From assembly GCA_036498205.1 (NCBI GenBank), contig DASXIC010000015.1:152-64151 (forward strand): a stretch of 64,000 nt of DNA, given 5' to 3'. This document shows, piece after piece, positions 9,272 to 49,953 of the stretch. The notes below the pieces were generated by a model. The model was given only the letters and a program-made list of their open reading frames with translations, was not told where the DNA came from and made no database searches. The DNA comes from Chthoniobacterales bacterium. Its GTDB lineage: Bacteria > Verrucomicrobiota > Verrucomicrobiia > Chthoniobacterales > UBA10450. The position numbers were made by a program, and so were the translations under genes. Position 1 is the first letter of the stretch. Each line of letters begins with the position of its first letter.

Positions 9272-9277
9272 TTTAGA

Positions 9278-10015
9278 ATGCTCATGCCATTGCTGGCGCT
9301 GCTAGTTGCCAGCAGCGCTCATGCCGCCGGTTTACCCCCGGATTGCAGTCAGCTCGTCGTCGGGGTCGCGCCCGGCTGGAATTCGATGCGAGGGCAATTA
9401 TTTTTGCTCGAGAAATCGGGTGCAGAGTGGCACCGACAAGCTGGCCCGGTTCCGGTATTGTTTGGGAAAAACGGGTTGGCCTGGGGAAGCGGCGTTGCCG
9501 GACAAAACGAGCAGGGTTTGCGCAAACATGAGCGCGACGGCCGGGCGCCCGCGGGAATATTTCGAATCGGCAAAATATATACCTACGACTCGTCACTTCC
9601 GGCCGGCGCAGATTACCCGTTCCATCAGGTTAGCGAGGCCGATATTTGGAGTGATGATCCGCGGTCACCGAACTATAACCGGCACGTCGTCATCGATCCG
9701 CGAAATCCGCCGGACAATTATAGCCACGAAAAGATGCGGCCGGGCGATTTCGCTTATCACTGGTTGATAGAGATCCGACATAATTCCGACCCGCCGGTGC
9801 CCGGCGACGGGAGCGCGATTTTTTTTCATATTCGGCGTGGAATTGATCGCCCGACTACGGGATGCACCACGATGGCGGAGGAGGATTTGATACAGATGAT
9901 CAAGTGGCTGCGCGCATCGAAGAATCCATGTTACGCTTTGCTAACAGCGCACGATTATTCCGCTAAACGGCAGGCTTGGAATCTGCCGCCACCGGATTTG
10001 GTAGGGCTGCCTTGA
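9278..10015 (+). CDS. L,D-transpeptidase (YkuD) family protein, secreted
   Basis: Signal peptide MLMPLLALLVASSAHA from the ATG at 9278. A catalytic-type motif GSAIFFHIRRGIDRPTTGCTTM (His ... Gly-Cys) is present. Confidence 0.65.
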   Translation: MLMPLLALLVASSAHAAGLPPDCSQLVVGVAPGWNSMRGQLFLLEKSGAEWHRQAGPVPVLFGKNGLAWGSGVAGQNEQGLRKHERDGRAPAGIFRIGKIYTYDSSLPAGADYPFHQVSEADIWSDDPRSPNYNRHVVIDPRNPPDNYSHEKMRPGDFAYHWLIEIRHNSDPPVPGDGSAIFFHIRRGIDRPTTGCTTMAEEDLIQMIKWLRASKNPCYALLTAHDYSAKRQAWNLPPPDLVGLP

Positions 10016-34724: not shown

Positions 34725-36719
34725 TCACCCACTGCTGCCGGTCAACGTCACTCGTCGCTGGTAAATCCAAATGTTGCTCTGGCTAAGCCTGCGAACGAGA
34801 AAAAATCCGGAGTCATCCGCATCTGGCCACTGTTCCGAGGAAAGGATGTAGCGACAGCCGATCTCGCGAAGCAAAGGCAGGTTGGGCGGAAGGGAGAGTG
34901 AGTAGAGATCTGCGTTAAGGAGCGATGCAACGAAGCTGTTGTTTTGGGGAAATTCACAAGCGATGTAAGCATAACGATTGTAAACCCACTCACCCGCGCG
35001 CGTGGGATCGAGCCGATGCATAAAATCGAGATCGGGAACAATCTTGTAAGCGTTCAACACCGGGGCTCCCGTTGCCAAGACTACCCCGCCAAGAATATAG
35101 TCGTGATAAACCGCCCATTTGGCCAGGGGATCGTCGGCGTGGAGTTTCTCGATTGTTTTGAAGGCTTCCGAGTCGGTGAGTGGGGCAAGCCCACGCATGA
35201 CTGGATTGATCCAGCTGTTGGAGGCGATCATCAGGAGCGCCAATAGCCAGAGTGCAAACTTCGGTTTCAAAAAAAAGACCGCAAAGATCAGCGCACTGAG
35301 GCTCAAGGCGAGAGCAAGCTGCCTGGGATCGGGAAATATTTCGGGCGAGCGCGATTTCGCCCACCACCAGATACTCGCTATTGCCAAGCAAAATAGCGTT
35401 ACCAGTGCGATGGCGCCGATTCGAGCAAGACGGAAATTGCTCCAGCGATCGAAAAAGACACAGCAGAGGATGATGTTGGCCAATCCGATGGCAAGCAAAG
35501 CACGGCTCTCCGTCGCAAAACTTAGCAGCGTTCCGTTGAGGAGCCACCGCGGCATGGGTAAAAGACAATAAAGAAGGAGAAAGCTGAGCAGGATGACGAC
35601 TGCCACCGCGAGAAATGAGACACGAATTTTTTCGCGTCGATAAATTGCCATTCCGATGACCGCCGCCGGCCAGAGCGGAAAGAAATTACTCGCTTCGCAA
35701 ATGTTTGGATAAATGGATGGCGTAGTTTTTTCCGTTTGAAAAAAACCGAATAGTCCGGAGAAAAGCTTGAAGAACGAAAGGTCGCCCCCATTGCTTCGTC
35801 GCGAACCGGGATAGAAGGTTTGACGCACGAGATCGAAGGTGGAGTGCATCTCCCACCAGAACGGAATTAACAGAAGCGCGATAATGAGAATACTGGCTCC
35901 CAGCAAAAGCGCGCCACGTCGATACCGCAAAGCCGTGGAGGTGTGGGCGCATTCTGCCACACTGCCAAATAGCAGTGCGAGGCCGAGAAGAAGGAGCGGG
36001 ATCTCGTAGGGCGGGTAAAGGCAAAGAAGAAAATTGATTCCGCAAAACACAAACCCTGCGACTGCCAACGCGATCTTCCACCAGCGGTCCGCTTGGAGAA
36101 AAACAACCACGCAGCCAATACAGATTGCCCAGGACGCGATCATTTCCGGCAACATCGCGGGCGTGGAGAACCACCACTGCACGTAGGCGGAAAAGAAAAT
36201 CCAAAGCGTGCCCAGGCAGACGACAACGCGGCTTTGAATTCCGATTTTTCGCAGCATCCAGGCGCAGGCTAGGAGCAGAGCGAGTTGTTTCGTGCACCAA
36301 AAAAAAGAGAACCCGCGTTCGAAATCGAAAAGGAAAAATCCCCAGAGCTGGGGTCGAAACACCGTGGTGTAATAGGCCACCGGCAAGCTGAGCAAAAGGG
36401 GAGAGCGACCCGCACCCAAGCTATAGTTTGCGGTCGGAAAAGACGGAGTTTGTCGCGCCTGTGAAAGGGCGGCTGGCGTCCATAAGGTCCATTCGTCTTG
36501 TCGAGCGTGTTGAGGACTGAATAGTAGAAGTCCGTTTGGTTTCGCTGATTCATTTAGTTCCCGGCTCCACTCGCCTATGGACGAACCGTTGAATTTCAGA
36601 GTAACGGCCGCTGCAAAAGCAATCAGGCACAACGCCCACTTCCACCGCATGAGCTGCCTGGCGAGCGCGCCACTCAGAGAATCCCGGCCGGGATCAGGCA
36701 CGATCACTTCGTCTGCCAT
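34725..36719 (-). CDS. Large polytopic membrane protein of unknown function (possibly GT-C-like)
   Basis: 664 aa. More than 12 hydrophobic helices are followed by a ~130-aa soluble C-terminal domain. The first extracytoplasmic loop contains HARQDEW. Confidence 0.5.
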   Translation of the reverse strand: MADEVIVPDPGRDSLSGALARQLMRWKWALCLIAFAAAVTLKFNGSSIGEWSRELNESAKPNGLLLFSPQHARQDEWTLWTPAALSQARQTPSFPTANYSLGAGRSPLLLSLPVAYYTTVFRPQLWGFFLFDFERGFSFFWCTKQLALLLACAWMLRKIGIQSRVVVCLGTLWIFFSAYVQWWFSTPAMLPEMIASWAICIGCVVVFLQADRWWKIALAVAGFVFCGINFLLCLYPPYEIPLLLLGLALLFGSVAECAHTSTALRYRRGALLLGASILIIALLLIPFWWEMHSTFDLVRQTFYPGSRRSNGGDLSFFKLFSGLFGFFQTEKTTPSIYPNICEASNFFPLWPAAVIGMAIYRREKIRVSFLAVAVVILLSFLLLYCLLPMPRWLLNGTLLSFATESRALLAIGLANIILCCVFFDRWSNFRLARIGAIALVTLFCLAIASIWWWAKSRSPEIFPDPRQLALALSLSALIFAVFFLKPKFALWLLALLMIASNSWINPVMRGLAPLTDSEAFKTIEKLHADDPLAKWAVYHDYILGGVVLATGAPVLNAYKIVPDLDFMHRLDPTRAGEWVYNRYAYIACEFPQNNSFVASLLNADLYSLSLPPNLPLLREIGCRYILSSEQWPDADDSGFFLVRRLSQSNIWIYQRRVTLTGSSG

Positions 36720-36800
36720 CGCGCGACGATGCTAGCGCCTTGACGAAACGTCAACGGCCTCGGTTGCGCAGCCAAATCCGCGTTTTAAACTGTCTCATTC

Positions 36801-37586
36801 ATGGACCGCTGGCTGCTGGTTTTATCCACGGTTTTCTTTTTCGCGGCTGTCGTTCGCACAGTCATCGCCTTGCGCGGCCGCATCTTTCGCTGGAGCCGTT
36901 TTAACTTCGCCACGATCGCAATTGGTTTCGGGCTCCAAACTGCATTTTTGTCGATGCGCGGGCACGCAGTTGGCCGTTGTCCGATTACGAATCTATTTGA
37001 AGTTTTCATTTTTCTGGCTTGGTCGGTGGCCCTGATATATCTCCTTGTCGGGCCGGCCTATCGCCTCTCTTTGATGGGTGCTTTCACGGCGCCTGTCGTT
37101 TTTCTGCTTCAACTCTTCGCGCTCCTTGTGCCAAGCGACACACCTCATCCGTCCCGTCTGGCGCCGAATCCATGGCTCGAATTTCACGCTTCAATCTCAA
37201 TCATCGCCTATGGCGCGTTCGCGCTCGCCTGCGTGGCCGGCGTGATGTACCTCGTGCAGGAACGACAACTGAAAACACATGAGCTGCGTTCGATTTTCTA
37301 TCATTTGCCTCCGCTGCCGACCCTGTTTGCGGCCATGACCAGGCTGCTCTGGTTTGGATTTGCACTTTATACCGCGGGATTGGTTAGCGGGTTTCTCACC
37401 GGGGAACCTCTGCCGCGAACGAAAATCGTGCTGGCCGTTGCGATCTGGATTTTGTACGGGGCGATTTTGCAGGGCAGGTATCTGCGTTCAATCACGCCGC
37501 GGCGCATCGCTGCGCTTTGTGTCGTTGCATTTGCGGCCGCGCTTTCGCTTTTGTGGAGTATTGAATTTGTTGCCCATCACGCGTGA
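36801..37586 (+). CDS. Cytochrome c assembly family membrane protein (HemX/YpjD-like)
   Basis: 261 aa, 8 TM-like helices, and no WWD haem-handling motif. It lies immediately upstream of hemA with a GTGA overlap, as hemX does in the B. subtilis hemAXCDBL cluster (order differs). Confidence 0.65.
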   Translation: MDRWLLVLSTVFFFAAVVRTVIALRGRIFRWSRFNFATIAIGFGLQTAFLSMRGHAVGRCPITNLFEVFIFLAWSVALIYLLVGPAYRLSLMGAFTAPVVFLLQLFALLVPSDTPHPSRLAPNPWLEFHASISIIAYGAFALACVAGVMYLVQERQLKTHELRSIFYHLPPLPTLFAAMTRLLWFGFALYTAGLVSGFLTGEPLPRTKIVLAVAIWILYGAILQGRYLRSITPRRIAALCVVAFAAALSLLWSIEFVAHHA

Positions 37587-38659
37587 AGCTTTTCTGTATC
37601 GGTCTTAACCACCGCACGGCGGACATCGAAACGCGTGAGCGCTTTGCCGGTCATGCCCAAACCGTGGCAATGCTGCACGATTTAAATTGTCACGAACGGC
37701 TGCTGCTTGCCACCTGTAACCGGGTCGAGATCTATGCCGCGGCGGAGCACGAAATTGCCAGCAAAAAAATCGTCCACTGCCTGCATAATGGCGAGGTTAC
37801 GTCCGGCCCGGATTTAGCGGCCTTTTACCGCCACGAAAATGCGGAGTGTGCGCGTCATCTCTTTCGCGTTGCGTCGGGAATGGATTCGATGGTGATCGGC
37901 GAAACCGAAATTCTGGGACAAACCAAACGGGCCTATGAAACGGCGCGGTTGAATGGCCAGACAGGTCGATTACTGCACCGATTGTTTCAGCATGCCTTTT
38001 CCACGGCAAAACAAGTACGGACAAAAACCGACATCGGTCGCGGTGCCGTTTCGGTGGGGTCGGTTGCGGTAGATCTCGCGGAAAAAATATTTGCCGATTT
38101 GCGCGGCCGGAAAGTACTGGTTCTTGGAGCGGGTGAGACGAGCGAAAAGACATTGCGTGCGTTGAGCGCGCGGGGGGTCTCGGACTTGCGCGTCACTAAT
38201 CGTTCTTCGCAGCGCGCCGAGGAACTTGCGGCCGAACTGGATGGGATAGCGATTCCCTTCGGCACCTGGCTCGAGCAATGCCGTGAGATCGATATTCTTA
38301 TTTCGTCGACGTCAGCGGAGGGGCAACTTCTGACCCCAGCCTTGCTTGGTCCCATGCTCCAGGAACGTGTCGATCGTCCGCTTTTCATTATCGATATTGC
38401 CGTTCCGCGTGATGTCGCACCCGAGATTAACAAGATGGATGGCGTTTACCTGTACGATATTGATGCGCTCCGATTGATCACGGAGGAAACGTTGCAGTTG
38501 CGTCGCCAGCAGCTTGCTGCGGCTGAGGCCATTATTGACGAGCATGTGGCTGAATTTTGCCGGCAGGTTGGCACTTCAATGGACGGCAATGGAATGAGCG
38601 CAAATCATGTAAACCAAGTCCCAGCCGCCCCGGGTCTTGAAGTCTCGAGCGCTTCTTGA
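37583..38659 (+). CDS. hemA: Glutamyl-tRNA reductase
   Basis: IGLNHRTADIETRE, catalytic LLATCNRVEIY, and the NADPH site VLVLGAGETS. Confidence 0.9.
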   Translation: MKLFCIGLNHRTADIETRERFAGHAQTVAMLHDLNCHERLLLATCNRVEIYAAAEHEIASKKIVHCLHNGEVTSGPDLAAFYRHENAECARHLFRVASGMDSMVIGETEILGQTKRAYETARLNGQTGRLLHRLFQHAFSTAKQVRTKTDIGRGAVSVGSVAVDLAEKIFADLRGRKVLVLGAGETSEKTLRALSARGVSDLRVTNRSSQRAEELAAELDGIAIPFGTWLEQCREIDILISSTSAEGQLLTPALLGPMLQERVDRPLFIIDIAVPRDVAPEINKMDGVYLYDIDALRLITEETLQLRRQQLAAAEAIIDEHVAEFCRQVGTSMDGNGMSANHVNQVPAAPGLEVSSAS

Positions 38660-38744
38660 TCCCAACGACCAGGGGCCGCAGCGGCGATTTGTGAGCGCCG
38701 AGGCAAAAGGGCCGGACGACCGGCTCGAACGCTCTTTAGCCGAA

Positions 38745-39638
38745 ATGGTCATTGGCACTCGTGGCAGCGAGCTCGCCATGACCCAAGCGCGCGCCGTGGC
38801 CGATGCTTTGCGTGAAAAATGTGGACTTCAGGTCAAGGTCGAAGTGATTCGAACCAGTGGAGATGAGGGTGACCAAGTCACCGATCGGCGCGCTGGTCGT
38901 AAGGGATTGTTCACGGCGGAGCTTGAGCGCGCCCTCGTCCAACGGCGAATCGATCTCGCGGTCCACAGCGCTAAAGATCTTCCCAGCCAATTGCATGACG
39001 GCACGAGAGTGGCGGCCACGCTGCCCCGGGGTCCGGTCGAAGATTTGCTGATTGCGAAAATCCCGGCGTCGATCGAATCGCTGCCGTTCAATGCGAGGAT
39101 TGCGACCGGCAGCGTGCGACGTCAAAGGCAGGTCCGGTGGATTCGGCCGGACGTTGGGCTGATCGATTTGCGGGGAAACGTCCCGACTCGTTTGCGGAAA
39201 TTCGCAGCCAATGATTGGGACGCGATCATTCTCGCCCGGGCCGGACTGGAGCGGCTTGAGTTTTCATTTCCGGAGTTCGAGTTGGGCAAGGCGAAATTTT
39301 TCGCGAACATTCTGGCGGCGGAGAAATTTCTTCCGGCGGGCGGGCAGGGGGTGATCGCGGTTCAGACTCGGGCTGCCGATGAAACAATCGCTCGGATGAT
39401 ATCAATGATTGACGATCGTCAGACACATCTGTGTTTCCGTGCCGAACGCGAATTCCTCAAATTGATGCAGGCTGATTGTGATACACCGATCGGTGCGCTC
39501 GCCATTGCGGTGAGCAATAAAATCGAATTACGGGCACAAATTTTCGCAGATGCGATCGAACCAAAAATGGCGTCCGGCCGCGGTAGTTCGCCCGAAGAAA
39601 TTGCGGCCGAAGTTTTTTCCAAAATCAATGGCACCTGA
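38745..39638 (+). CDS. hemC: Hydroxymethylbilane synthase (porphobilinogen deaminase)
   Basis: IGTRGSELAMTQA, AVHSAKDLP, RGNVPTRL, and the cofactor Cys context DCDTPIGA. The start is set at the ATG at 38745. Confidence 0.9.
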   Translation: MVIGTRGSELAMTQARAVADALREKCGLQVKVEVIRTSGDEGDQVTDRRAGRKGLFTAELERALVQRRIDLAVHSAKDLPSQLHDGTRVAATLPRGPVEDLLIAKIPASIESLPFNARIATGSVRRQRQVRWIRPDVGLIDLRGNVPTRLRKFAANDWDAIILARAGLERLEFSFPEFELGKAKFFANILAAEKFLPAGGQGVIAVQTRAADETIARMISMIDDRQTHLCFRAEREFLKLMQADCDTPIGALAIAVSNKIELRAQIFADAIEPKMASGRGSSPEEIAAEVFSKINGT

Positions 39639-41142
39639 AACCGGGAAATGTTTCCTTGTTGGAGCGGGGCCGGGAGATCTCGGTTTAGTCACGTTGCGCG
39701 CAAAAGATTTGGTCGAGCGTGCTGACGTCGTCATTTACGACGCTCTTTGCAATTCCGAGATGCTGGCGTGGGCGCGCCGCGATGCGGAGCTCATTTTCGC
39801 CGGAAAAAGACCCGGCGAGCATTTTCTGTCACAGGAGCAGATCAACACTCTCCTGGTGGAAAAGTCGCGGGAAGGAAAAATTGTCGTCCGTTTGAAAGGA
39901 GGTGATCCATTCGTCTTCGGTCGGGGCGCAGAAGAGGGGGAGGCGCTCGCCAGCGCGGGAATTGAGTTCGAAATCGTTCCCGGGATCACCTCGGCGGTGG
40001 CGGTCCCGGCTTACGCTGGAATTCCATTGACGCACCGCGAGCAGAACTCACACGTCACCATTTTTACCGGGCATGAAGACCCGGGAAAACCAGGAAGCGC
40101 GATCGATTTTGAAGCCTTGGCAAAGCTCGGTGGCACACAGGTGATGTTAATGGGGATTGAGCGGCTTGAAGCGATTACACGGCAAATGCTCGCTTGCGGA
40201 AGGAGCGGCGACTTGCCGGCAGCAGTAGTGCGCTGGGGAACGACCGGTCACCAAAAGACGATCGTCGGAAGATTAAGTAATATTGCAGAGCGCGTCCGCG
40301 AGAGCGGATTGGAAGCTCCGGCGATTGCCATCTTCGGCGATGTTGTGTCGCTGCGAAAAAACCTGAACTGGTTTGAGAAGCGACCTCTCTTTGGAAAAAG
40401 GATCGTCGTCACCCGGACGCGTAAACAGGCCGGGGCACTCAGTTCGCAACTGCGCGACCTTGGCGCGGACGTGATCGAACTGCCCACGATCCGAATCGAG
40501 CCCCCAAGCGACTTACGCGAATTCGCGCAGCTGGTACAGGATGCGCATTCCTATGACTGGATCGTTTTCACCAGCCCAAACGGTGTCGACGCGTTCTTTG
40601 AAATCTTCTTCAAACTTTACGATGACGCCCGCGAAATTGGCGGTGTGAAGATTGCAGCGATTGGGGCGGCTACGGCGCGACGGGTAGAGGATTTTCATCT
40701 GCATGTGGATCTGCAACCGGAGGAATTTGTCGCCGAAGCGGTGTTGCGAGAGTTCGAGAAGCTGGGTGGCATCGAGAACCTGAAGGTGCTGCTTGCCCGG
40801 GCGGAGAAGGCGCGAGACTTGCTCCCGAGGGAACTAGCGCGCATGGGAGCTATCGTGGACGAAGCGTTTGCTTATCGAACCATTCCGGAGACGTCTGATG
40901 TCACCGGCGCGCGTCATCGTTTTCGCGAAGAAGGCGCCGATCTGATCACTTTCACCAGTTCCTCTACGGTCGAGAATTTCCTCGATCTCAAATTACCATG
41001 GCCGGCGGGAATGAAGGTCGCAAGTATCGGCCCGATCACCTCCGCCACAGCCCTCGAACACGGGCTCGCTGTCGATGTAGAAGCGAAGCAACACGATATT
41101 CCCGGACTGATCAGCGCGGTTCGCAAATTTTTCGGAGCTTAG
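39628..41142 (+). CDS. Bifunctional uroporphyrinogen-III C-methyltransferase / uroporphyrinogen-III synthase (CobA/HemD fusion)
   Basis: The N-terminal SUMT half has VGAGPGDLGLVTLRA, VRLKGGDPFVFGRG and VPGITSA. The C-terminal HemD-like half has LFGKRIVVTRTRKQAGALSSQL...WIVFTSPNGV. Confidence 0.85.
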   Translation: MAPETGKCFLVGAGPGDLGLVTLRAKDLVERADVVIYDALCNSEMLAWARRDAELIFAGKRPGEHFLSQEQINTLLVEKSREGKIVVRLKGGDPFVFGRGAEEGEALASAGIEFEIVPGITSAVAVPAYAGIPLTHREQNSHVTIFTGHEDPGKPGSAIDFEALAKLGGTQVMLMGIERLEAITRQMLACGRSGDLPAAVVRWGTTGHQKTIVGRLSNIAERVRESGLEAPAIAIFGDVVSLRKNLNWFEKRPLFGKRIVVTRTRKQAGALSSQLRDLGADVIELPTIRIEPPSDLREFAQLVQDAHSYDWIVFTSPNGVDAFFEIFFKLYDDAREIGGVKIAAIGAATARRVEDFHLHVDLQPEEFVAEAVLREFEKLGGIENLKVLLARAEKARDLLPRELARMGAIVDEAFAYRTIPETSDVTGARHRFREEGADLITFTSSSTVENFLDLKLPWPAGMKVASIGPITSATALEHGLAVDVEAKQHDIPGLISAVRKFFGA

Positions 41143-41143
41143 A

Positions 41144-41827
41144 ATGCCGGAAGATTTTGCGAGCACGATGCGGGAATTAAGCGCCGCTGCCATCGGGCGC
41201 GATCAATCGCGCAGCAGTCAAGAGCTTGCGGCGTTGATGCGGGAATTTCATCTGCTCAATGCTACCATTCAAAGCCTCGAATCGGTCCTGACGCGACGGA
41301 TCGAAAACATAGCGACAGCAGTACTGCCGGCGCGAGCGGCTGAGACGACGGCCCAATTTCAGAAAATCGAAGAGCATCTGCAAGCGATTCGAACGAGCGA
41401 ATCGGTAAATCAGCGGTTGTTTGATTCGCTGCACGATGAGCTCCTGAAATATCGCGATAATTTTTTACATGAATCGCTCCACAAACCCTTTGTACGCGAT
41501 CTGATAATTTTGTTTGATGACCTGAGTGCGCTTTGCGATCAGCTAAAAGGCGCGACCTCGCGTGGAGAGAAAGCCGATCGACTCGCTCATTGGCGTAGTA
41601 ATCTGGAAAACGCCATTCACGCGCTGCTCGAAGTGTTGCATCGGCTTGAAGTGACGGAAATCGAGCCGAAAGAGTTCGTCGATTTGGCAATGCACCGGGT
41701 CGTTAGTTTTGAACCGGCGGAATTTGCCGAGGACGACGGACGAATCGTTATGCGGGTGAAACGCGGTTTCATCTGGCGCGGTAACGTTCTGCGGCCCGAA
41801 GAAGTAATCGCGAAGCGTTACCAATAG
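41144..41827 (+). CDS. GrpE-like nucleotide exchange factor
   Basis: 227 aa. A long helical N-terminal part is followed by a C-terminus EPKEFVDLAMHRVVSFEPAEFAEDDGRIVMRVKRGFIWRGNVLRPEEVIAKR that resembles the GrpE beta-domain. The ATG lies 1 nt after the cobA/hemD stop. Confidence 0.55.
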   Translation: MPEDFASTMRELSAAAIGRDQSRSSQELAALMREFHLLNATIQSLESVLTRRIENIATAVLPARAAETTAQFQKIEEHLQAIRTSESVNQRLFDSLHDELLKYRDNFLHESLHKPFVRDLIILFDDLSALCDQLKGATSRGEKADRLAHWRSNLENAIHALLEVLHRLEVTEIEPKEFVDLAMHRVVSFEPAEFAEDDGRIVMRVKRGFIWRGNVLRPEEVIAKRYQ

Positions 41828-41836
41828 ACGCGCAGC

Positions 41837-41856
41837 TGCCGCTTTCGGCACTTTTT
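41837..41856 (+). terminator. Weak hairpin plus T5 after the GrpE-like gene (possible attenuating terminator)
   Basis: A 5-bp stem TGCCG/CGGCA with loop CTTT, followed by CTTTTT. The stem is short. Confidence 0.25.
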
Positions 41857-41971
41857 CTCGCGAGCGGCCGACAGATTGCAGTGGCGAAGAGCCCTCTGGA
41901 AATCGCTTCGCTATCCGGCATGAAAGTTGCACGCAAAGTGCGGGCGCGTGTGCCCGTAATTTCTCCAAAAA

Positions 41972-43534
41972 ATGAACCAGCGGAAAGCAGTCGGAATCGA
42001 TTTGGGCACCACTTTCTCGGCCGTCGCGCATATTGACGCCTACGGGAAACCTCAAATCATTCCCAACTCCGAGAGCGAGCGCATTACGCCGTCCGTCATT
42101 CTTTTCGACGGAACGAACGTGATTGTCGGGACAACCGCCAAAAATAACGCCGTGGCTGAACCCGAGAAAATTGTCGATTTCGTCAAACGCGAGATGGGCA
42201 AACCGAAAGAGCAATTCCACCGCGAATTTTCCGGAAAGATTTATTCGGCGGAGGAATTGAGCGCGTTGATTCTGAAAAAGCTCAAGCTTGATGCGGAAAA
42301 ATATTTAAAAGAGCCAATTACGGACGCGGTCATCACTGTGCCGGCATATTTCAACGACGCGGAACGCACCGCCACAATCACAGCGGGACAGCTCGCCGGA
42401 TTCAACGTTTTACAGATCATAAACGAGCCGACGGCAGCGGCGCTGGCTTACGGCCTGGATAAACTGGATGAGGACCAGACCGTTTTCGTATTCGACCTCG
42501 GTGGGGGCACCTTCGACGTCACGATCATGCGCATCGAAGGGCACCACATCAACATGATCGCGACCAACGGTGATCATCGCCTGGGAGGCAAAGACTGGGA
42601 CGACACGATCGTCAATTTCGTGGCCGAAGAATTCGATCGCCAGCACGGCGAAAATCCCTTGCTCGATTTACAAAGTTACCAGGAACTGCACACGCGCGCG
42701 TTGTCGGCCAAGATCCAACTATCGAGCCGGCCACAGACAGCCGTGATTCATCATCACGCAGGCAAAAGCGTCAAACTGGAGATCACACGCGAGGAGTTTG
42801 AACGCCGGAGCCAGCACCTGGTGGAAAAATGCAAAACGATTTGCGAAATGGTGATGCAGGAATCCGGGATGACGTGGGAGAAAATTGACAAGGTCCTGCT
42901 TGTCGGCGGCATGACGCGAATGCCGATGGTGCGCGAGCTGGTGGCCCAACTTACCCAGGCCCCGGTCATTGACGACGTCAATCCAGATGAAGCAGTCGCG
43001 ATGGGCGCATCAATTCAGGCAATTCTTTCGCTCCTGGAAGAGGAGCGACTCTCTGGTGAGAGGGTCCTGCCAGAAAATACCAGAGATCAATTCGCTGGCA
43101 GAGACGGCGGCTTAATTCAGGTCACGAACATCACTTCGCACACCCTCGGCGTCGTTTTATGGGATGAAGCGCAACTCGAAGAGTACGTCTTTCCGATGAT
43201 CCGCAAAATGACGGCGATTCCAGCGACGGCGAAAAATTCCTTCGGGACGGCCATGGCAAACATGCAGCGCGCTGTCGTGCGGGTGGTTGAGGGCGAAAGC
43301 ACCCTGCCCGGCGAATGCACGCCCCTTGGAATTTGCGACGTGGAGCTGCCTTCATTCCTGCCGAAAGGCTCTCCGGTTGAGTTGACCTATGAGTACAACG
43401 CCAACCAAGTACTTGAAGTGTCGGTCGAGGCTTGCGGCAATAGCGCAAAGGTCTCGATCGAACGGAACACCGGACTCGCGCCAGGTGAGGTGGCGCAGGC
43501 GATCGCAAATCTCGGTTCTCTTCGGGTGGCGTGA
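41972..43534 (+). CDS. Hsp70-family ATPase lacking the C-terminal helical lid
   Basis: GIDLGTTFSAVA, DLGGGTFDVT, LVGGMTRMP and NPDEAVAMGA are intact. The protein ends at 520 aa, shortly after the beta-sandwich substrate domain. Confidence 0.9.
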   Translation: MNQRKAVGIDLGTTFSAVAHIDAYGKPQIIPNSESERITPSVILFDGTNVIVGTTAKNNAVAEPEKIVDFVKREMGKPKEQFHREFSGKIYSAEELSALILKKLKLDAEKYLKEPITDAVITVPAYFNDAERTATITAGQLAGFNVLQIINEPTAAALAYGLDKLDEDQTVFVFDLGGGTFDVTIMRIEGHHINMIATNGDHRLGGKDWDDTIVNFVAEEFDRQHGENPLLDLQSYQELHTRALSAKIQLSSRPQTAVIHHHAGKSVKLEITREEFERRSQHLVEKCKTICEMVMQESGMTWEKIDKVLLVGGMTRMPMVRELVAQLTQAPVIDDVNPDEAVAMGASIQAILSLLEEERLSGERVLPENTRDQFAGRDGGLIQVTNITSHTLGVVLWDEAQLEEYVFPMIRKMTAIPATAKNSFGTAMANMQRAVVRVVEGESTLPGECTPLGICDVELPSFLPKGSPVELTYEYNANQVLEVSVEACGNSAKVSIERNTGLAPGEVAQAIANLGSLRVA

Positions 43535-45162
43535 TGGATGTGAAATGGGATGTCACTTTTCCGCTTCCTCTTCCCGATGATCCTAAAAAATGGGACGGCT
43601 GGAGCCGATACAAATCGCCCAACCCGTACGAGCGGCTCTGCCTGGATCCACGGCAGAATCCCAGCAACGAGCTGATCGAAGAGCATTGCCGGGAGCTGTT
43701 GCGCTGGTGGCAGAAAAAGCTCCCGCTGAAGAACCAACCAAGTAATCCACTGGCGCAGTTATTGCGCTCCGGTCTGGATGAATCGTCCCGATATCTGACC
43801 GAAGCGCGCGTAGAGCTGCTTGACCCCACGCGACGAAAACGGGTGGACGAGGAACTTGCCGCTCAAGCGCAGCAGGAGACCATTGCCGAATTCCAAAAAT
43901 TTCTCGCATTCTCACTCGCCGACGGGCTCCTCACCAACGACGAAGAGTCAACGCTGTTCAGGTTTGGGGCCGATCACGGGCTAAACGAGGAGCAAATGCA
44001 CCTGTTTATTGAGCAGGAATTAAAGGCAACCGGCGCGAGCCGGGCTGTGGAGCCCGCTTCTCCAGAGATCGCCGCTATCCAGTCCAATGGCGCCGAGGTT
44101 GTCGTCACCGATCCTAAAACGGAGTTCGTGAGAATGTTGCGACTAAGCGGCCTCGACAGCGAGGCAATGACCAACGACCAACGCGATGCCTTCATCAACG
44201 TAGCGGAGAATTCCGGCCTGGACCCCAGTGAAGCAGAGGACATGGTCGACGCCTATTTGGAAGAGGTCGATCAGCAGCAATCCGACCAGATAACGACGGC
44301 GACTCGACAATCTGTTTCGGTGGCGGTCGAGGCAGCAACGAAATCAACCAAGCCGAACGAGGAAGTCGCCAAGATACCTGCCGAGCGAACGCTGTCCCCC
44401 GACGAGGAACGTCGTCGGTTCAACAATTACGTGAATTCCGTTCGCGGCCAGATGTTCTTAATTCCTTCGAGCGAGTTCACCATGGGCAGCGACGCCGCGG
44501 AGGCCGCGCCGAATGAAAAGCCACAATTTCTGGTAACCGTAAGCCGGTTTTACATTTCCCGATTTCCAATTACGAACGAGCAATACGAGGAATTCGATCC
44601 CGGCCATAAGCGCAAGCGCGCTCCTGGCGCTGGTGAGCGGCATCCGGTCGTATACGTCAGCAGCCTTGATGCGATGCGATTCTGCCAGTGGCTCAGCGCG
44701 CGCGAGCGAAAAAAATATCGACTACCGACCGAAGCAGAGTGGGAGTACGCCGCCAAAGGAAATGACGGCCGACAATTTCCCTGGGGAAATTTCGCTCGGC
44801 GCGGCGATCTCGCAAACTTTGCCGACAAGAATACTGTGTTTGCCTGGAGCGACCCGGAAATCGACGATGGTTTCGCGGAGAGCTCACCCGTAGGATCGTT
44901 TCCACGAGGGGCAAGCCCGTTTGGGGTCGAAGACATGGCCGGGAACGTGTGGGAATGGTGTCTTGATTATTTTGAGCACTATAAAGCAACCCCAAAATCT
45001 AACCCACGCGGTCCCAGCACGGGTTCCAAACGCGTTTATCGCGGAGGAAGCTGGAAGTCTCGTTTTGCCACTTTGCGCACGACTGCACGTAGCGCGAACG
45101 CGCCGAATTATTCCTGCAACGATCTGGGCTTCAGGATTGTTTGCGAATGCGAAGCTAAGTGA
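43531..45162 (+). CDS. J-like domain (no HPD) / helical repeat / FGE-sulfatase-like (SUMF1 family, catalytic Cys pair absent) protein
   Basis: ATGA overlap with the Hsp70 stop. The N-terminus reads NPYERLCLDPRQNPSNELIEEHCRELLRWWQKK. The C-terminus has RLPTEAEWEYAAKG, GNVWEWCLD, YRGGSW and LGFRIV, but ...GGSWKSRFATLRTTARS... has no CxxxxC. Confidence 0.7.
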   Translation: MMDVKWDVTFPLPLPDDPKKWDGWSRYKSPNPYERLCLDPRQNPSNELIEEHCRELLRWWQKKLPLKNQPSNPLAQLLRSGLDESSRYLTEARVELLDPTRRKRVDEELAAQAQQETIAEFQKFLAFSLADGLLTNDEESTLFRFGADHGLNEEQMHLFIEQELKATGASRAVEPASPEIAAIQSNGAEVVVTDPKTEFVRMLRLSGLDSEAMTNDQRDAFINVAENSGLDPSEAEDMVDAYLEEVDQQQSDQITTATRQSVSVAVEAATKSTKPNEEVAKIPAERTLSPDEERRRFNNYVNSVRGQMFLIPSSEFTMGSDAAEAAPNEKPQFLVTVSRFYISRFPITNEQYEEFDPGHKRKRAPGAGERHPVVYVSSLDAMRFCQWLSARERKKYRLPTEAEWEYAAKGNDGRQFPWGNFARRGDLANFADKNTVFAWSDPEIDDGFAESSPVGSFPRGASPFGVEDMAGNVWEWCLDYFEHYKATPKSNPRGPSTGSKRVYRGGSWKSRFATLRTTARSANAPNYSCNDLGFRIVCECEAK

Positions 45163-45208
45163 CAATCATTCTCGCTCAGCTTTTCGACATGCGCGATAGC
45201 TTGAGGCG

Positions 45209-45232
45209 AAAAACGCGGCTCTTCGCCGCGTT
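45209..45232 (-). terminator. Intrinsic terminator downstream of rpsU
   Basis: On the minus strand, a stem CGCGGC/GCCGCG (loop GAAGA) is followed by TTTTT. It begins ~29 nt after the rpsU stop and lies between convergent genes. Confidence 0.55.
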
Positions 45233-45258
45233 CCGAAAACGATCTCAGGCGTGGAAAA

Positions 45259-45453
45259 TCAGGGGTTAAATCGGAATTTGGTCCGACCCCGTTTCGCATT
45301 TGCCTTTGCCTTACGCCTGCTCTTTTGCGATGGCGTTTCAAACGCTCGCAGGCGGCGCACTTCGTCGAGAATGCCCTCGGCGTCCAGCTTGCTTTTCAGC
45401 CGCTTAAGCGCGCGATCTACCGGCTCGCCTTTTCGAACTATGACTTCTGGCAT
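45259..45453 (-). CDS. rpsU: 30S ribosomal protein S21
   Basis: MPEVIVRKGEPVDRALKRLKSKL...RAFETPSQKSRRK. GAGGTG lies 7 nt upstream of the ATG. Confidence 0.9.
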   Translation of the reverse strand: MPEVIVRKGEPVDRALKRLKSKLDAEGILDEVRRLRAFETPSQKSRRKAKANAKRGRTKFRFNP

Positions 45454-45576
45454 TAATTCACCTCGATCCTGGGAACGTGGCCCCGACTCTTGGAGCGGAC
45501 GGAGGATACCGCAGACGCCTATCTCCAGTCAAATCGGGAAGGAATTACCGGCGCGAACCCATGGTTTCGAGGCTTT

Positions 45577-47934
45577 TTAGGTCGCCGCAGCCGGTTTTGT
45601 GCCGGCTTGTTTCTCCCTTACTTCACGGCGCAGCGAGCTAGTGCTGCCCCCGCGGGCCCGGGTCCACCAAAGCACGATCGGTGACGCGATGAAAATGGAG
45701 GAATAGGTTCCTACGACCACGCCAATGATAATAGCGAGGGAGAAATCGCGCAGAACCGCGCCTCCGAAAAGAAACAGGCACAGAATGGGTATCAACGTCA
45801 CTGTACTGGTCAGAATCGTCCGGCTGAGTGTCTGATTGATGCTCTCGTTCATGATCTGTTCGATGGAACCCTTGCGGCCACTGGCCAATCCTTCACGGAT
45901 CCGATCGTAAACGACAATGGTGTCGTTGATCGAATATCCGGCGATCGTCAGCACTGCTCCGACCATGGTGAGCGTGAGCTCGCGGTGAAGGAGCGAAAAC
46001 ATCCCGACCGTAATCAACACGTCATGTAATAAGGCAACGATTGCCCCGACGGCGAACGAAAGCTCGAAACGGAAAGTGACGAAAATCAGGATGCCGAGAA
46101 TGCCCAGGCCAAGAGCGATGAGCGAACTGCGGGCCAACTCGCCCCCGACCAGGGCACCCACCCGTTCGGCTCCTTCCACCTTGAATTGTGCTTGCGGCAT
46201 CGCACTCATGATTTGTTTCTCGACCGTATCGCTCGTGTGCAGAGGCGTGCGAACAGTGATGTAATATTTGTCGCCCTGTTTTGATTCCTGGATTGCCGCG
46301 TCTGCCAGATTGATTTGCTTGAGCGCGCCGCGCACCTGGCCGACATCGATTGGCTGAGGCGAGCTTAGGGTGATCAAATCGCCTCCACGAAAATCAACCC
46401 CGAAATTCTTTTCGCCGCGCAGGTAGAACGAAGTCGCGCCAGCGATAATGAGGGCGAGAGAGCACATGCACGCGATAAGGCCTTTGCCTAGGAAATCGAT
46501 GTTCTTGGACGAGATCAGATGCAGCATCCTGATTTTCTTTACCCGACCGGTATCGACAAACCATTCGAAGAGGTTGCGCCCGACGATGAGCGCGGTGAAA
46601 AGCGACGCGAGGATGCCGAGAGTCAAAGAGATGGCAAATCCTTTGATCGGGCCACTCGCTTTCCAAAATAAAATCACGGCCGTGATCAGTGTGGTTACAT
46701 TTGCGTCGAAAATTGAGCTGAAAGCTTTTTCATAGGCTGCTTGCACCGCGACCTTGAGCGATTTTCCGAGCGCAAGCTCTTCACGCAGTCGCTCGTAAAC
46801 GAGAACACTGGCATCGACCGACAAACCAATTGTCAGAATAATGCCGGCAATACCCGGCAGAGTAAGAACGAAACGGAACATGGTCAGCGCCCCGAGAAGG
46901 AGAATGAGGTTGATGATGACGCAGAAGCACGCGATCAGGCCGGCGAACTGATAGTAAATTGAGACGAGCACGAGGGTGATCGCCAGCCCCACCAGACCGG
47001 CCAGAACGCTGGCTCTAATCGAATCCGCTCCCAGCGTCGGCGATACGCTCCGCTCTTCTTCAATCGTAACCGGGGTTTGCAACGGGTTTTCCAATACGCT
47101 GGCCAACTGCCGCGCCTCCTGTTCCGAGAAACGCCCCGTAATGACCGCGTCTCCACCGTAAATCGCATCGCGAATCACCGGTGCCGACTGGATGACGTTA
47201 TCCAGGACAATGGCGAAACGATGACCTTTGTATTGCTCGGTGATTCGGCCAAATGTCTTCGCCCCTTCGCCATCGAATTTCAGCTGTACCGCCCAGCCCT
47301 CGTTGCCGTAATAGGCATGGGATTCCGAAACATGCTCGCCGCCGAGATCGGCCTTCTTTTTGACCAACAAGCGCTCCTGATGCTGTTTTGGCGGGCCCTG
47401 TTCTTCCGTTCCCTCGGCTCGCAGGTTATAGGTTTCGATTCGATACTCAGGCGGGATCACTTCCGTTCCCTTGTCGATCCCCTGTAGCCGCTCTCCGTTG
47501 TCCGGATAGACCAGACGAAACTCCAGTTTGGCTACGCGGGAAAGTTGATCACGCGCTTCCTGGATTTTCGCCGTATCGAGTCCGGGAATTTGCACCAGAA
47601 TCCGGTCGGCACCCACCGGACTGATGATTGGTTCTCCACCACCGAAATAATCAACGCGCTTTCGGATTACTTCGACGGCCTGATCAAGCATTGCCGTGGT
47701 AATCGGTTTGTCGGTCTGCTGAAGCTTAATCAGGAATGAAGTCCCGCCTTTGATATCGAGGCCGAGAGCAATTTTTTTTCCTGGCGGCCAAATGGTGGCA
47801 ATGCTGAAGGCGACCAGCAGCACCATCAGCAAGGTGGCCAGCAACCGTTTGCGCAGTCCGTAATCAGTCGCGAAATACCACCCGAAAAGAACAAGCAACA
47901 AAAGTCCGATGAAAAAAGTCAGCGCCGGAGTCAT
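45577..47934 (-). CDS. secDF: Protein translocase subunit SecDF (fused)
   Basis: 785 aa. The SecD periplasmic domain plus 12 TM helices, with GLDIKGG and duplicated SecD/SecF TM blocks (TLPGIAGIILTIGLSVDA..., VGAVLTIAGYSINDTIVVYDRIRE). Confidence 0.9.
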   Translation of the reverse strand: MTPALTFFIGLLLLVLFGWYFATDYGLRKRLLATLLMVLLVAFSIATIWPPGKKIALGLDIKGGTSFLIKLQQTDKPITTAMLDQAVEVIRKRVDYFGGGEPIISPVGADRILVQIPGLDTAKIQEARDQLSRVAKLEFRLVYPDNGERLQGIDKGTEVIPPEYRIETYNLRAEGTEEQGPPKQHQERLLVKKKADLGGEHVSESHAYYGNEGWAVQLKFDGEGAKTFGRITEQYKGHRFAIVLDNVIQSAPVIRDAIYGGDAVITGRFSEQEARQLASVLENPLQTPVTIEEERSVSPTLGADSIRASVLAGLVGLAITLVLVSIYYQFAGLIACFCVIINLILLLGALTMFRFVLTLPGIAGIILTIGLSVDASVLVYERLREELALGKSLKVAVQAAYEKAFSSIFDANVTTLITAVILFWKASGPIKGFAISLTLGILASLFTALIVGRNLFEWFVDTGRVKKIRMLHLISSKNIDFLGKGLIACMCSLALIIAGATSFYLRGEKNFGVDFRGGDLITLSSPQPIDVGQVRGALKQINLADAAIQESKQGDKYYITVRTPLHTSDTVEKQIMSAMPQAQFKVEGAERVGALVGGELARSSLIALGLGILGILIFVTFRFELSFAVGAIVALLHDVLITVGMFSLLHRELTLTMVGAVLTIAGYSINDTIVVYDRIREGLASGRKGSIEQIMNESINQTLSRTILTSTVTLIPILCLFLFGGAVLRDFSLAIIIGVVVGTYSSIFIASPIVLWWTRARGGSTSSLRREVREKQAGTKPAAAT

Positions 47935-48270: not shown

Positions 48271-48306
48271 GAGATGCGGAGGAAAAGAGGGGCACAATTG
48301 AATCCA

Positions 48307-49953
48307 ATGCGCTCTGCAATGCAACCACGGCCCGAGGCGGCTTCATTGAACGGTCTGAGAAAAGTGCCAGCCCAGATTTTACTTTTCTTTGCAACCGTCG
48401 CGACGCTCACGCCATTTCTGAACAAAGCCTTTCATATCGACGATCCGCTTTTTTTATGGATGGCGGGCCAGATCAGACGGCATCCGTTCGATCCCTATGG
48501 GTTCAATGTGAACTGGATCGGCGCGCCTGAGCCAATGTGGAGCGCCATGCAAAATCCGCCGCTCTGTTCCTATTTTATCGCCGCCTTCACAGGGGTGACA
48601 GGTGAGAACGAGATCGCATTGCATGCACTTTTTCTCATCTGGGCTGCAGTGGCCGTACTCGCCGTCTTCGCGATCGCGCGTCGCTTCTGTCAGCCGCCCA
48701 CAACGGCGGCGCTCCTGGCCCTGTTCACCCCGGTCTTCCTTGTTTCGGCCACCAACGTCATGTGCGATGTAATGTTGCTTGCTCTCTATCTACTGGCGAT
48801 CGAGTGCTGGTTTATCGGTCTCGAGAAGAGAGGGTGGTGGCTCCTGTTCTTATCCAGCCTGTTGGCGTCGGCAGCCGCCCTGACAAAATATTTCGGGATC
48901 AGTGTCGTCGGCCTGCTCGCGGCCTACACCTTACTGCTGCAGTGGCGATCATGGCCGCGTCTATTTTGGCTGCTCTTGCCAGTTGCCATCACGATCGCCT
49001 ACGACGCCTGGACCAAGGCGAAATATGGGCACCCGCTTTTCACCGGGGCAACACATTACGCCCAAATGATTTCCGGCCGCTATGCCAATTCATTTCCGAA
49101 ACAATTTCTGCTCGGCTGTTCTTTCCTCGGTGGCTGTTTGTTCCCTGCAGTTTTTTTCCTGCGCCTGAAACCGAAGATTTTCCTGGGGGCCGCGATTCTC
49201 TCGGCTGTATCTCTCGGTTGCTTCTGGTTCTTTTTCTCACCGGGGAGTGATTTTGGTCGCAACTACTTTTTCGTCATTATCGAGGGTGGAATTTTTGCGG
49301 CCATCGGCTTGTGGCTTCTGGGGCTTGCCGGACTGGATTTCTGGCAGAAGCGCGATGCCGGTTCTTTTCTTCTTTTTCTGTGGATCATCGGAACTTTTGC
49401 CTTCTCCACATTCCTAAATTGGTCCGTAACCGCGCGGACGATATTGCCGATGGTGCCGGCGTGCGCGATCCTGATCGCGCGGCGATTCGTCGCCGGACGA
49501 GGATTTTCCTGGAAAACGGCAACGCAAATTGCGCTGGCCGCCATGGTGTCATTCACGATCGCCTTTGCGGACTACAGGGTTGCAAATACTGCCCGAGAAG
49601 CCGCGCATCAATTTGAGACGCAATTCCGCGCTGAGCCTGGTACAGTTTGGTTTCAAAGCCATTGGGGATTTCAATTTTACATGCAGCAGTGGGGCGCCCG
49701 TGCTCTGAACATGTTCAATTCAGAAATCACCACTGGCGACGTCATGGTAGTTCCGGCAAACAACACCGCCGTTTTAAATATTCCGCCGGAGAAAGTTTAT
49801 CCGCCGGAAGAAGTGAATTTTTCCACGCTGCCTTACTTCTCGACCATCGGCATAAGAACAGGCGCGAGTTTTTACAGCAGCGTTCGCGGTCCACTTCCCT
49901 GGATGTTCGGCCGCGCGCCGGCTGAGATGTACTACGTTGCCCGGTTTCGCTAG
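48307..49953 (+). CDS. GT-C fold glycosyltransferase (family 39 / ArnT-like)
   Basis: Polytopic, with the first-loop motif NKAFHIDDPLFLW and a soluble C-terminal ~110 aa. The start is uncertain (ATG at 48307 chosen). The stop abuts the convergent tgt stop with zero gap. Confidence 0.6.
   Translation: MRSAMQPRPEAASLNGLRKVPAQILLFFATVATLTPFLNKAFHIDDPLFLWMAGQIRRHPFDPYGFNVNWIGAPEPMWSAMQNPPLCSYFIAAFTGVTGENEIALHALFLIWAAVAVLAVFAIARRFCQPPTTAALLALFTPVFLVSATNVMCDVMLLALYLLAIECWFIGLEKRGWWLLFLSSLLASAAALTKYFGISVVGLLAAYTLLLQWRSWPRLFWLLLPVAITIAYDAWTKAKYGHPLFTGATHYAQMISGRYANSFPKQFLLGCSFLGGCLFPAVFFLRLKPKIFLGAAILSAVSLGCFWFFFSPGSDFGRNYFFVIIEGGIFAAIGLWLLGLAGLDFWQKRDAGSFLLFLWIIGTFAFSTFLNWSVTARTILPMVPACAILIARRFVAGRGFSWKTATQIALAAMVSFTIAFADYRVANTAREAAHQFETQFRAEPGTVWFQSHWGFQFYMQQWGARALNMFNSEITTGDVMVVPANNTAVLNIPPEKVYPPEEVNFSTLPYFSTIGIRTGASFYSSVRGPLPWMFGRAPAEMYYVARFR

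Follow-up and report, generated by a model that had tools for sequence, protein, structure and literature searches.

The 64-kb window analysed here (64,000 nucleotides of contig DASXIC010000015.1 from a Chthoniobacterales bacterium), a stretch of core chromosome, carries a trio of genes that encode a GrpE-like protein, a short Hsp70 and a third protein, the adaptor (protein 3), in which a J-like domain is joined to a domain with the fold of formylglycine-generating enzyme (FGE). Our confidence is evenly divided over the proposal that the trio is a dedicated, adaptor-tethered Hsp70-paralog system, one branch of a wider and apparently undescribed short-Hsp70 family. The three genes are as follows.

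41144-41827, plus strand: GrpE-like gene, 227 aa (open reading frame (ORF) call and Pfam GrpE)
41972-43534, plus strand: short Hsp70 gene, 520 aa (ORF call and Pfam HSP70)
43534-45162, plus strand: adaptor gene, 542 aa from ATG 43534 (543 aa from the alternative GTG 43531)

The original prediction, made from the letters of this stretch, had listed three co-oriented ORFs and their spacings, and these were re-derived unchanged: the GrpE-like ATG lies 1 nt past the cobA/hemD stop, and a spacer of 144 nt separates the GrpE-like and Hsp70 genes. All peptide motifs quoted at that time were found in the ORFs. An ATGA overlap of the Hsp70 stop with the adaptor start had also been described; the junction reads GTGATGG and gives an overlap of GTGA (GTG start) or TGATG (ATG start) instead, and the N-termini of homologs (MDVKWD...) support ATG 43534. 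All three proteins are without hydrophobic segments (the maximum Kyte-Doolittle 19-residue window of the adaptor is 0.87) and are therefore taken to be cytoplasmic. Pfam models for GrpE, HSP70 and FGE-sulfatase were matched, those for TerB and DnaJ were not, and no trio protein attains any NCBIfam equivalog cut-off.

The adaptor is made up of the following parts.

aa 10-23, nt 43561-43602, plus strand: N-terminal extension PLPDDPxKWDGW, invariant, ahead of J helix I
aa 18-112, nt 43585-43869, plus strand: J-like domain (hhalign, AlphaFold2 (AF2), Foldseek)
L63-P64-L65, nt 43720-43728, plus strand: LPL at the position of the His-Pro-Asp (HPD) motif (profile alignment, KKLPLKN opposite KYHPDRN)
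aa 116-172 and 190-248, nt 43879-44277, plus strand: two helical units (AF2 helices) with a disordered linker between them
aa 306-536, nt 44449-45141, plus strand: FGE-sulfatase-fold domain (Pfam FGE-sulfatase, 2.2e-50)

Judged by profile comparison and the predicted fold, the adaptor N-terminus is a true J-domain homolog without HPD. An alignment of 144 distinct family sequences matched an alignment of seven canonical J-domains in hhalign with 94.1% probability (E 1.3e-7, 66 columns). The AF2 model of aa 1-279 has a pLDDT of 86, with values above 90 in the J-like region, and its sole compact Foldseek neighbours in the PDB are J-domains (TMt 0.52-0.66), led by Tid1 (2dn9, prob 0.96, TMt 0.66) and including E. 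coli DnaJ in complex with DnaK (5nro_B, TMt 0.64). Pfam DnaJ gave no match to the isolated N-terminus at E<=10 or to the full protein at E<=1; the adaptor-family hidden Markov model (HMM) also picks up the Pfam-DnaJ-positive second units of distant relatives. J-domain homology and loss of HPD, both claimed originally from an alignment by eye, thus hold, and the QKK that had been read at the HPD position gives way to LPL, which is invariant in 121 orthologs. The J-like domain loop reads WWQKKLPLKNQPSNP. Among these orthologs the J-like domain is conserved at 0.88 and the FGE-like domain at 0.77, with values of 0.13-0.25 in the linkers; conservation is highest in helix II and the loop (aa 45-76; 0.96, 24 of 32 columns invariant). 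As this is the best-conserved stretch of the protein, the HPD-less domain is under the strongest selection and not a decaying relic. W23 of the N-terminal extension is invariant even among relatives of 20% identity, and the AF2 model shows this segment as ordered. The Gly/Phe (G/F) region, the zinc-finger and the C-terminal domains of DnaJ are all absent from the adaptor.

The Hsp70 is altered on the matching side. It aligns with Pfam HSP70 at 7e-124 over model positions 1-510 of 599 and stops in lid helix A, about 14 residues from the start of that helix; the helical lid, the alpha part of the substrate-binding domain (SBD-alpha), is absent, and SBD-beta is present and divergent. A lid truncated by sequencing is ruled out by the uniform length of 67 orthologs (513-524 aa). 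Residues D8, T11, T12, K70, E171, D194, G197-T199 and D201 (DnaK numbering, as for all Hsp70 positions below) are conserved in all 67, and P143 and R151 are invariant, so that a lidless Hsp70 with intact nucleotide-binding motifs, as first described, is borne out. By comparison, R167 is replaced by Q in 66 of the 67 orthologs, D481 by N in every one, and D393 is N or D (N in the window protein); in addition the linker VLLLD has become IQVTN, E206 is R and the D211 loop is deleted. The aspartate of HPD acts on R167, D393 and D481, and mutating these residues uncouples stimulation by J-domain proteins; DnaK with R167 or its partners mutated has raised basal activity, and J stimulation is abolished (PMC7289447). 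The switch residues are therefore changed in both partners, neither of which has the canonical trigger, and the earlier view of a J-like partner without HPD is strengthened by the loss in its Hsp70. Identity to E. coli DnaK is 36%, and the scores of 425 against the NCBIfam DnaK cut-off of 648 and of 335 against the HscA cut-off of 709 agree with the earlier view of a dedicated, non-canonical Hsp70/GrpE/J-like set distinct from the housekeeping DnaK.

The FGE-like domain of the adaptor matches FGE/SUMF1 structures in the PDB at 1e-30. In the alignment to human FGE, GGSWKSRF---ATLRTTARS stands opposite GGSYM[C336]HRSY[C341]YRYRCAARS: the counterpart of Cys336 is an invariant family residue, Ser509, and Cys341 falls inside a 3-residue deletion. 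The reported absence of the paired catalytic cysteines was correct, and from the alignment this is an FGE-fold module without the copper-binding cysteines. The calcium-site residues appear to be retained or conservatively replaced (human N259/D273 to N428/D445; N293/E300 to D467/E474). Invariant columns are N428, G446, G470, E474, S506, S509 and R519. The domain lies below all NCBIfam equivalog cut-offs (GldK 105 vs 350, with PvdO far below too), and in the full-length AF2 model of the adaptor pLDDT is about 35 over aa 410-530.

The third partner is recognisably, if remotely, GrpE-like. Pfam GrpE matches it at 43.5 bits against a gathering cut-off of 25.8 (3.5e-11; residues 124-222, model positions 64-162), as expected from the beta-domain tail noted originally; the conserved C-terminal beta-domain motif is GFIWRGNVLRPEEV, of which the pattern GFxWxxxVLRPEEV is kept in distant loci. 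Against the housekeeping GrpE equivalogs of NCBIfam its best score is 32 bits (cut-off 176), and a PDB search at E<=1 matched no GrpE structure.

Transcription seems to divide the trio. The spacer between the GrpE-like and Hsp70 genes contains the following elements.

41837-41860, plus strand: weak terminator-like hairpin with a T-run, just 3' of the GrpE-like stop (consensus scan of this sequence)
41917-41931, plus strand: sigma54-type -24/-12 element GGCATGAAAGTTGCA, GG-N10-GC, 40 nt 5' of the Hsp70 ATG

The block GGCAyGrAAnnTGCA, whose halves are TGGCAC/TTGC-like, is the sole conserved part of the spacer. Of 41 ortholog loci, 37 have the promoter core motif, 36-62 nt 5' of the Hsp70 ATG, and 3 more have one-base variants; its background is 29 other matches in 2.47 Mb, or about 1 per 85 kb. 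Just one further match to GGCAYG-N5-TGCW exists in the window (9311-9325, minus strand); it falls within the part of a plus-strand ORF at 9263-10015 (MLMPLLALLVASSAHAA) that codes for the signal peptide, and is probably due to chance. No GAFTGA protein was found within the 64-kb window. The Hsp70 and adaptor genes appear to form one sigma54-dependent unit, and the GrpE-like gene, which on the evidence of its junction is translationally coupled to hemD, appears to ride on the hem transcript. The original description of the module as appended to the haem operon is therefore apt for the GrpE-like gene and not for the Hsp70 and adaptor genes, with their own conserved sigma54-type promoter.

Among species-representative genomes, 406 were found by a scan to have a relative, and the best 80 were all Chthoniobacterales/Spartobacteria metagenome-assembled genomes. 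Full-length relatives of the adaptor are 64-90% identical, the named ones being from Verrucomicrobiota or Chthoniobacterales. Synteny was followed in the Chthoniobacterales loci fetched with enough flank (about 64; ortholog loci of 17 kb), and in every one of them the gene order is fixed: ccsA-hemA-hemC-cobA/hemD-GrpE-like-Hsp70-adaptor, then rpsU, secDF and yajC. The co-occurrence of the trio across genomes, for which a neighbourhood search had been proposed, is thus seen wherever the flanks permit. Identity among these orthologs is 77-98% for the Hsp70, about 65% for the adaptor and about 55% for the GrpE-like protein. The trio locus is core chromosome and not a defence island; elsewhere the window encodes DnaB, SMC, transketolase, EF-G, ribosomal proteins, tgt, queC and ksgA.

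More distant members of the family were collected by several searches. The first 260 aa of the adaptor, searched exhaustively against 1.84 billion representatives, returned only 163 proteins; an alignment of distant J-like modules run against a 5.8-billion-protein index gave 2 proteins (a word-index-limited result), one of which yielded locus L082; and a metagenome scan with a 4-sequence alignment gave 5 loci, among them L087, a weak and unrelated match. Full-length adaptors of the distant group keep the J-like unit and a helical unit, often add a second J unit (Pfam-DnaJ-positive and HPD-less), an Ig/BACON-like domain and transmembrane (TM) helices, and vary at the C-terminal end (FGE-like, LamG, DUF4440, PEGA or TPR, and PDZ too). 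HPD is present in neither J-like unit of the distant relatives from the representative search. The order GrpE-like, short Hsp70, J-like is found in 8 of 9 distant loci (L082-L086 and L088-L090), of which the five metagenomic loci L082-L086 encode Hsp70s of 532-534 aa; in L091 an ankyrin-repeat gene occupies the GrpE position. The remaining architectures are these.

L088 (Brocadiaceae): GrpE, Hsp70, then an adaptor of two J-like units, TM and PDZ
L089 and L090 (Poribacteria-type): sulfatase, GrpE, Hsp70, then an adaptor of helical unit, J-like, Ig, TM and FGE-like, followed by TPR
L091: sulfatase, ankyrin, Hsp70, then three adaptors, each of helical unit, J-like and FGE-like

A search with a distant Hsp70 recovered a clade of 510-547 aa that includes Ca. 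Scalindua, Brocadiaceae and Poribacteria, and the lid is absent clade-wide. R167 is replaced (Q, G or A) in all short Hsp70s examined, and in the distant branch R167/D393/D481 have become G/K/N(D). A constant set of GrpE-like protein, lidless and R167-less Hsp70 and J-like adaptor, combined with a variable output domain, is what marks a dedicated chaperone module targeted by its adaptor; such variable output domains would be typical of an adaptor.

Several genes near the distant modules may be mentioned in their own right. Two zinc-ribbon proteins (253 aa and about 500 aa, with CxxC-rich N-termini) are encoded as a conserved pair 1.5-3 kb 5' of the trio in two metagenomic loci (L083, 878-3158; L085, 690-2986) and may represent added components. 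AAA_15/AAA_21 (DUF2813) ATPase pairs and a HigB toxin are found near Poribacteria-type modules (L089, 1-2069; L090, 51-1202 and 9201-9527), and a dynamin-like GTPase with an AAA_16 ATPase near the Brocadiaceae module (L088, 1-2823). These defence-island-like neighbours (AAA ATPases, HigB, dynamin-like GTPase) are absent from the window.

How might such a module work? In the mechanism that we propose, the lidless Hsp70 would dock on its own adaptor through the HPD-less J-like domain, which would act as a fixed handle, and the cytoplasmic, cysteine-less domain of the FGE/C-type-lectin fold would choose a particular ligand or client. Of the canonical trigger, neither half is left: the HPD aspartate is missing from the J-like domain, and the Hsp70 has lost Arg167 together with D393/D481. 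ATP hydrolysis by the Hsp70 is probably uncoupled from the J-domain or coupled in some other way, because the DnaK mutants in R167 or its partners behave so. The lidless Hsp70 would probably bind clients with fast on and off kinetics, and specificity would come from tethering rather than from J-stimulated trapping. Made together from the sigma54-type promoter, the Hsp70 and the adaptor would be expressed in a signal-dependent manner through an enhancer-binding protein, and the GrpE-like partner would be made together with hemD. That the proteins pair physically, that the ATPase runs uncoupled, that the FGE-like domain serves in binding and that transcription depends on sigma54 are our inferences.

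Four points weigh against this proposal. First, the nucleotide latch is replaced in the short Hsp70 (R56N, E264S/T, E267L, L257Q), which rules out a retained GrpE-dependent latch, and the GrpE-signature loop is 6 residues shorter; the published latch criteria predict GrpE independence for Hsp70s without the latch (PMC8215388). Taken together, the loss of the latch and the short loop predict that this Hsp70 should not need GrpE, and that would leave the GrpE-like partner unexplained. Second, the order-wide coupling to hemD is not explained by an adaptor model. Third, a cysteine-less FGE fold could carry some other catalytic activity. Fourth, a tight co-variation of the loss of the HPD aspartate with the loss of R167 is ruled out by L089-L091, whose adaptors retain RPD, or HPD in one paralog, and whose Hsp70s have Q167; the loss of R167 is clade-wide and does not follow closely that of HPD.

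A bolder form of the proposal, which we offer tentatively and consider possible but doubtful, would place the lidless Hsp70s of 510-547 aa from Verrucomicrobiota, Planctomycetota, Poribacteria and related groups beside DnaK, HscA and HscC, as a fourth prokaryotic type that operates without the HPD-Arg167 switch. In these a rewired J-like domain would couple modular, often membrane-spanning adaptors (PDZ, LamG, FGE-like), such that a binding event at the adaptor becomes Hsp70 action. If so, chaperone-based sensing or client-specific remodelling would proceed via a new J-Hsp70 interface.

It is unlikely, on the evidence at hand, that the trio is a helper of sulfatase maturation, in which the FGE-like domain would bind the CxPxR motif of nascent Cys-type sulfatases, as is reported for the inactive paralog pFGE/SUMF2, and the Hsp70 would keep them unfolded for a true FGE or an anaerobic sulfatase-maturating enzyme (anSME). 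PVC bacteria and Poribacteria are rich in sulfatases, and FGE acts on unfolded sulfatases. A Cys-type sulfatase gene (CSPSR motif, without signal peptide) lies directly 5' of the module in L089, L090 and L091 (L089, 3944-5230; L091, 3508-4785), and the window Hsp70 is nearest to the Hsp70s of this very group (52-57% identity). A cytoplasmic sulfatase, as predicted in L089 and L091, is unusual. These three loci are a single lineage, however, and amount to about one evolutionary event; the window genes examined include no sulfatase, nor was one seen next to the trio in the Chthoniobacterales loci, and other members have PDZ, LamG or DUF4440 in place of the FGE-like domain. About 50 residues of the N-terminal subdomain of human FGE, between two aligned blocks, are missing from the adaptor, and they presumably include the residues that bind the arginine of CxPxR. 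The original prediction had asked whether the FGE-like domains of relatives sit beside sulfatases and keep their cysteines: they do sit there in the three related loci, but the FGE-like domains of these loci are likewise Cys-less.

The setting of the trio bears on a second alternative, which we rate as having only a small chance: that the module chaperones or regulates a haem or sirohaem enzyme (HemD, CobA or glutamyl-tRNA reductase, GluTR) or a haem protein. Upstream of the trio the window holds a haem cluster at 36801-41142, plus strand, assigned by ORF calls and by Pfam on the orthologous genes in locus L001.

36801-37586, plus strand: ccsA/HemX-like membrane protein, 261 aa, the first gene of the cluster (Pfam Cytochrom_C_asm)
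37583-38659, plus strand: hemA (GlutR_N in the L001 ortholog)
38637-39638, plus strand: hemC (Porphobil_deam in the L001 ortholog)
39550-41142, plus strand: cobA/hemD fusion (TP_methylase and HEM4 in the L001 ortholog)

The ccsA-family protein is one that we take to resemble HemX of the Bacillus hemAXCDBL operon. The distance from the hemD stop to the GrpE-like start is -11 to +8 nt in most of the 64 loci, the whole order from ccsA to the adaptor gene is conserved, and in L035, from which ccsA, hemA, hemC and cobA are gone, the junction of a stand-alone hemD with the GrpE-like gene persists. The promoter of their own that the Hsp70 and adaptor genes carry argues the other way, as does the count of distant loci in which hem genes adjoin the module (0 of 9), and adjacency within one order can come by descent, without a functional tie.

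We think it very unlikely that the trio is a conflict, defence or signalling system of the type described by Kaur et al. (2020), in which FGS/FGE domains would be sensors or effectors against invaders and Hsp70/GrpE/J a thresholding chaperone. The idea, raised in the original prediction as a link to NTP-dependent conflict systems, has a basis in that HSP70, GrpE and DnaJ are tied to GAP1-N2 GTPase systems with inactive FGS as binding effectors (PMC7159879). Some distant loci do stand near the ATPases, HigB or the dynamin-like GTPase listed above, and PADLOC PDC-S48 matches the adaptor weakly at aa 96-172 (nt 43819-44049; the long helix and helical unit 1) with E 5e-5 to 1.6e-4. But no GTPase, tubulin, vWA, MoxR, FNIII or effector gene is present at the window locus, where the neighbours are secDF, rpsU, hem genes, EF-G and DnaB, and the same position and order in the orthologs with enough flank, with Hsp70s as similar as they are, differ from sporadic, fast-evolving defence genes. 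PADLOC gave no significant match to the Hsp70 or the GrpE-like protein and otherwise no meaningful match, and PDC-S48 is not mentioned in the accessible literature. The link is not supported for this locus.

The short Hsp70 could instead be Hsp110-like, not acting on clients itself but assisting the housekeeping DnaK through nucleotide exchange or as a booster, as was proposed for truncated DnaK paralogs in a 2026 review (PMC13580251). The linker and allosteric residues are altered as in Hsp110. Exchange by Hsp110 works through the helical lid, a part missing from the short Hsp70, and the retained SBD-beta and full set of catalytic residues, together with GrpE-like and J-like partners of its own at nearly every locus, make this role highly improbable. 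That the trio is an ordinary housekeeping DnaK/GrpE/DnaJ misread through divergence or truncation, as its three canonical families and core-genome setting might suggest, can practically be dismissed given the distance from E. coli DnaK, scores far under the DnaK, HscA and GrpE cut-offs, the uniform Hsp70 length, the absence of HPD and of every other DnaJ region, and the report that derived paralogs are never seen without a bona fide DnaK (PMC13580251).

Returning to the adaptor, its two helical units are in register with each other but do not qualify as true repeats (E 0.049, not significant); unit 2 matches the N-terminal unit of Poribacteria-type proteins (78%, E 1.8e-5). They had been thought to be TerB/DjlA-like, and this was not sustained: TerB was matched in none of 29 family members by Pfam at E<=1 and is not among 30 Foldseek matches. 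In the surroundings of the trio, rpsU (ribosomal protein S21, 64 aa; 45259-45453, minus strand) lies between the adaptor gene and secDF, also in L001, and is smaller than the ORF-length filter first applied. The hem/chaperone/secDF block is bracketed by two large polytopic membrane proteins, a DUF7657+DUF7654 protein (34725-36719, minus strand) and a PMT_2 glycosyltransferase-like protein (48274-49953, plus strand). No enhancer-binding protein, sulfatase, GTPase, vWA or MoxR gene was found among the window genes examined, an Rfam scan of 36000-46000 at E<=0.1 gave no match, and PHROGs matched generic Hsp70 and FGE-kinase families only, with no phage link.

The drive that J-domains exert on Hsp70s is regarded as working universally through the HPD motif and its target, Arg167. 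Here, a widespread natural system has both halves of this switch replaced, with the J-like loop as its best-conserved part and the ATPase site intact. It offers a handle on whether, and how, an Hsp70 couples to a J-fold partner by another route, and on the job of Hsp70s that have no lid. With a defined cassette of three genes and a conserved sigma54-type promoter, the system is open to experiment. Should the trio prove to be an ordinary client-specific chaperone, it would still be a new class of bacterial Hsp70 system and would give a function to cysteine-less FGE-fold domains.

Three prokaryotic Hsp70 types are recognised, of which the specialised HscA and HscC do not use GrpE (PMC8215388), and truncated bacterial DnaK paralogs are acknowledged as uncharacterised (PMC13580251). 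The largest census of J-proteins dropped every non-HPD sequence (PMC10410713), and Hsp70/GrpE/DnaJ were described by Kaur et al. inside GTPase-centric systems only (PMC7159879). The accessible literature, which is incomplete, contains no account of the trio cassette or of an architecture that combines Hsp70, FGE and sigma54.

Compared with known systems, the trio resembles canonical DnaK-DnaJ-GrpE in having the same three families in one locus, a nucleotide-binding domain with the ATP-binding and catalytic residues, SBD-beta and the GrpE beta-domain motif. It departs from it in an Hsp70 without lid, R167/D393/D481, VLLLD linker or nucleotide latch, in a J partner that has an FGE-like domain and no HPD, G/F region or client-binding domains, and in a promoter of the sigma54 type, not the heat-shock type. 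With the GAP1-N2 systems (PMC7159879) it shares the co-occurrence of Hsp70, GrpE and J-type proteins and the use of FGS/FGE as non-enzymatic modules; GTPase and FNIII were not found in the window or the 17-kb ortholog loci, and the published systems are mainly from actinobacteria and firmicutes, whereas the trio is core and syntenic rather than sporadic. Proteins such as pFGE/SUMF2, PvdO and GldK/PorK likewise have an FGE fold without the catalytic Cys pair and known or proposed non-oxidase roles in binding or structure, although none is fused to a J-like domain or tied to an Hsp70. Closer are HscC-DjlB/DjlC and HscA-HscB, in which a specialised Hsp70 paralog likewise has a J partner of its own; the short Hsp70 resembles HscC in the deletion of the D211 loop, and both HscA and HscC in having no latch residues. 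These two keep a shortened lid and J-domains with HPD or HPE and have no GrpE, whereas the trio is lidless, has LPL for HPD and almost always includes a GrpE-like gene. Precedents for the two unusual halves of the trio come from eukaryotic systems, Pam16 (Tim16)/Pam18-mtHsp70-Mge1 and the ribosome-associated complex (RAC) Ssz1-Zuotin, where the work is done by a second, HPD-bearing J-domain and a canonical Hsp70, neither of which is encoded at the trio locus. In the former, Pam16 is an HPD-less J-like domain that acts as a structural or regulatory partner, and in the latter a lidless, atypical Hsp70 (Ssz1/HspA14) is held in a stable complex with a J protein.

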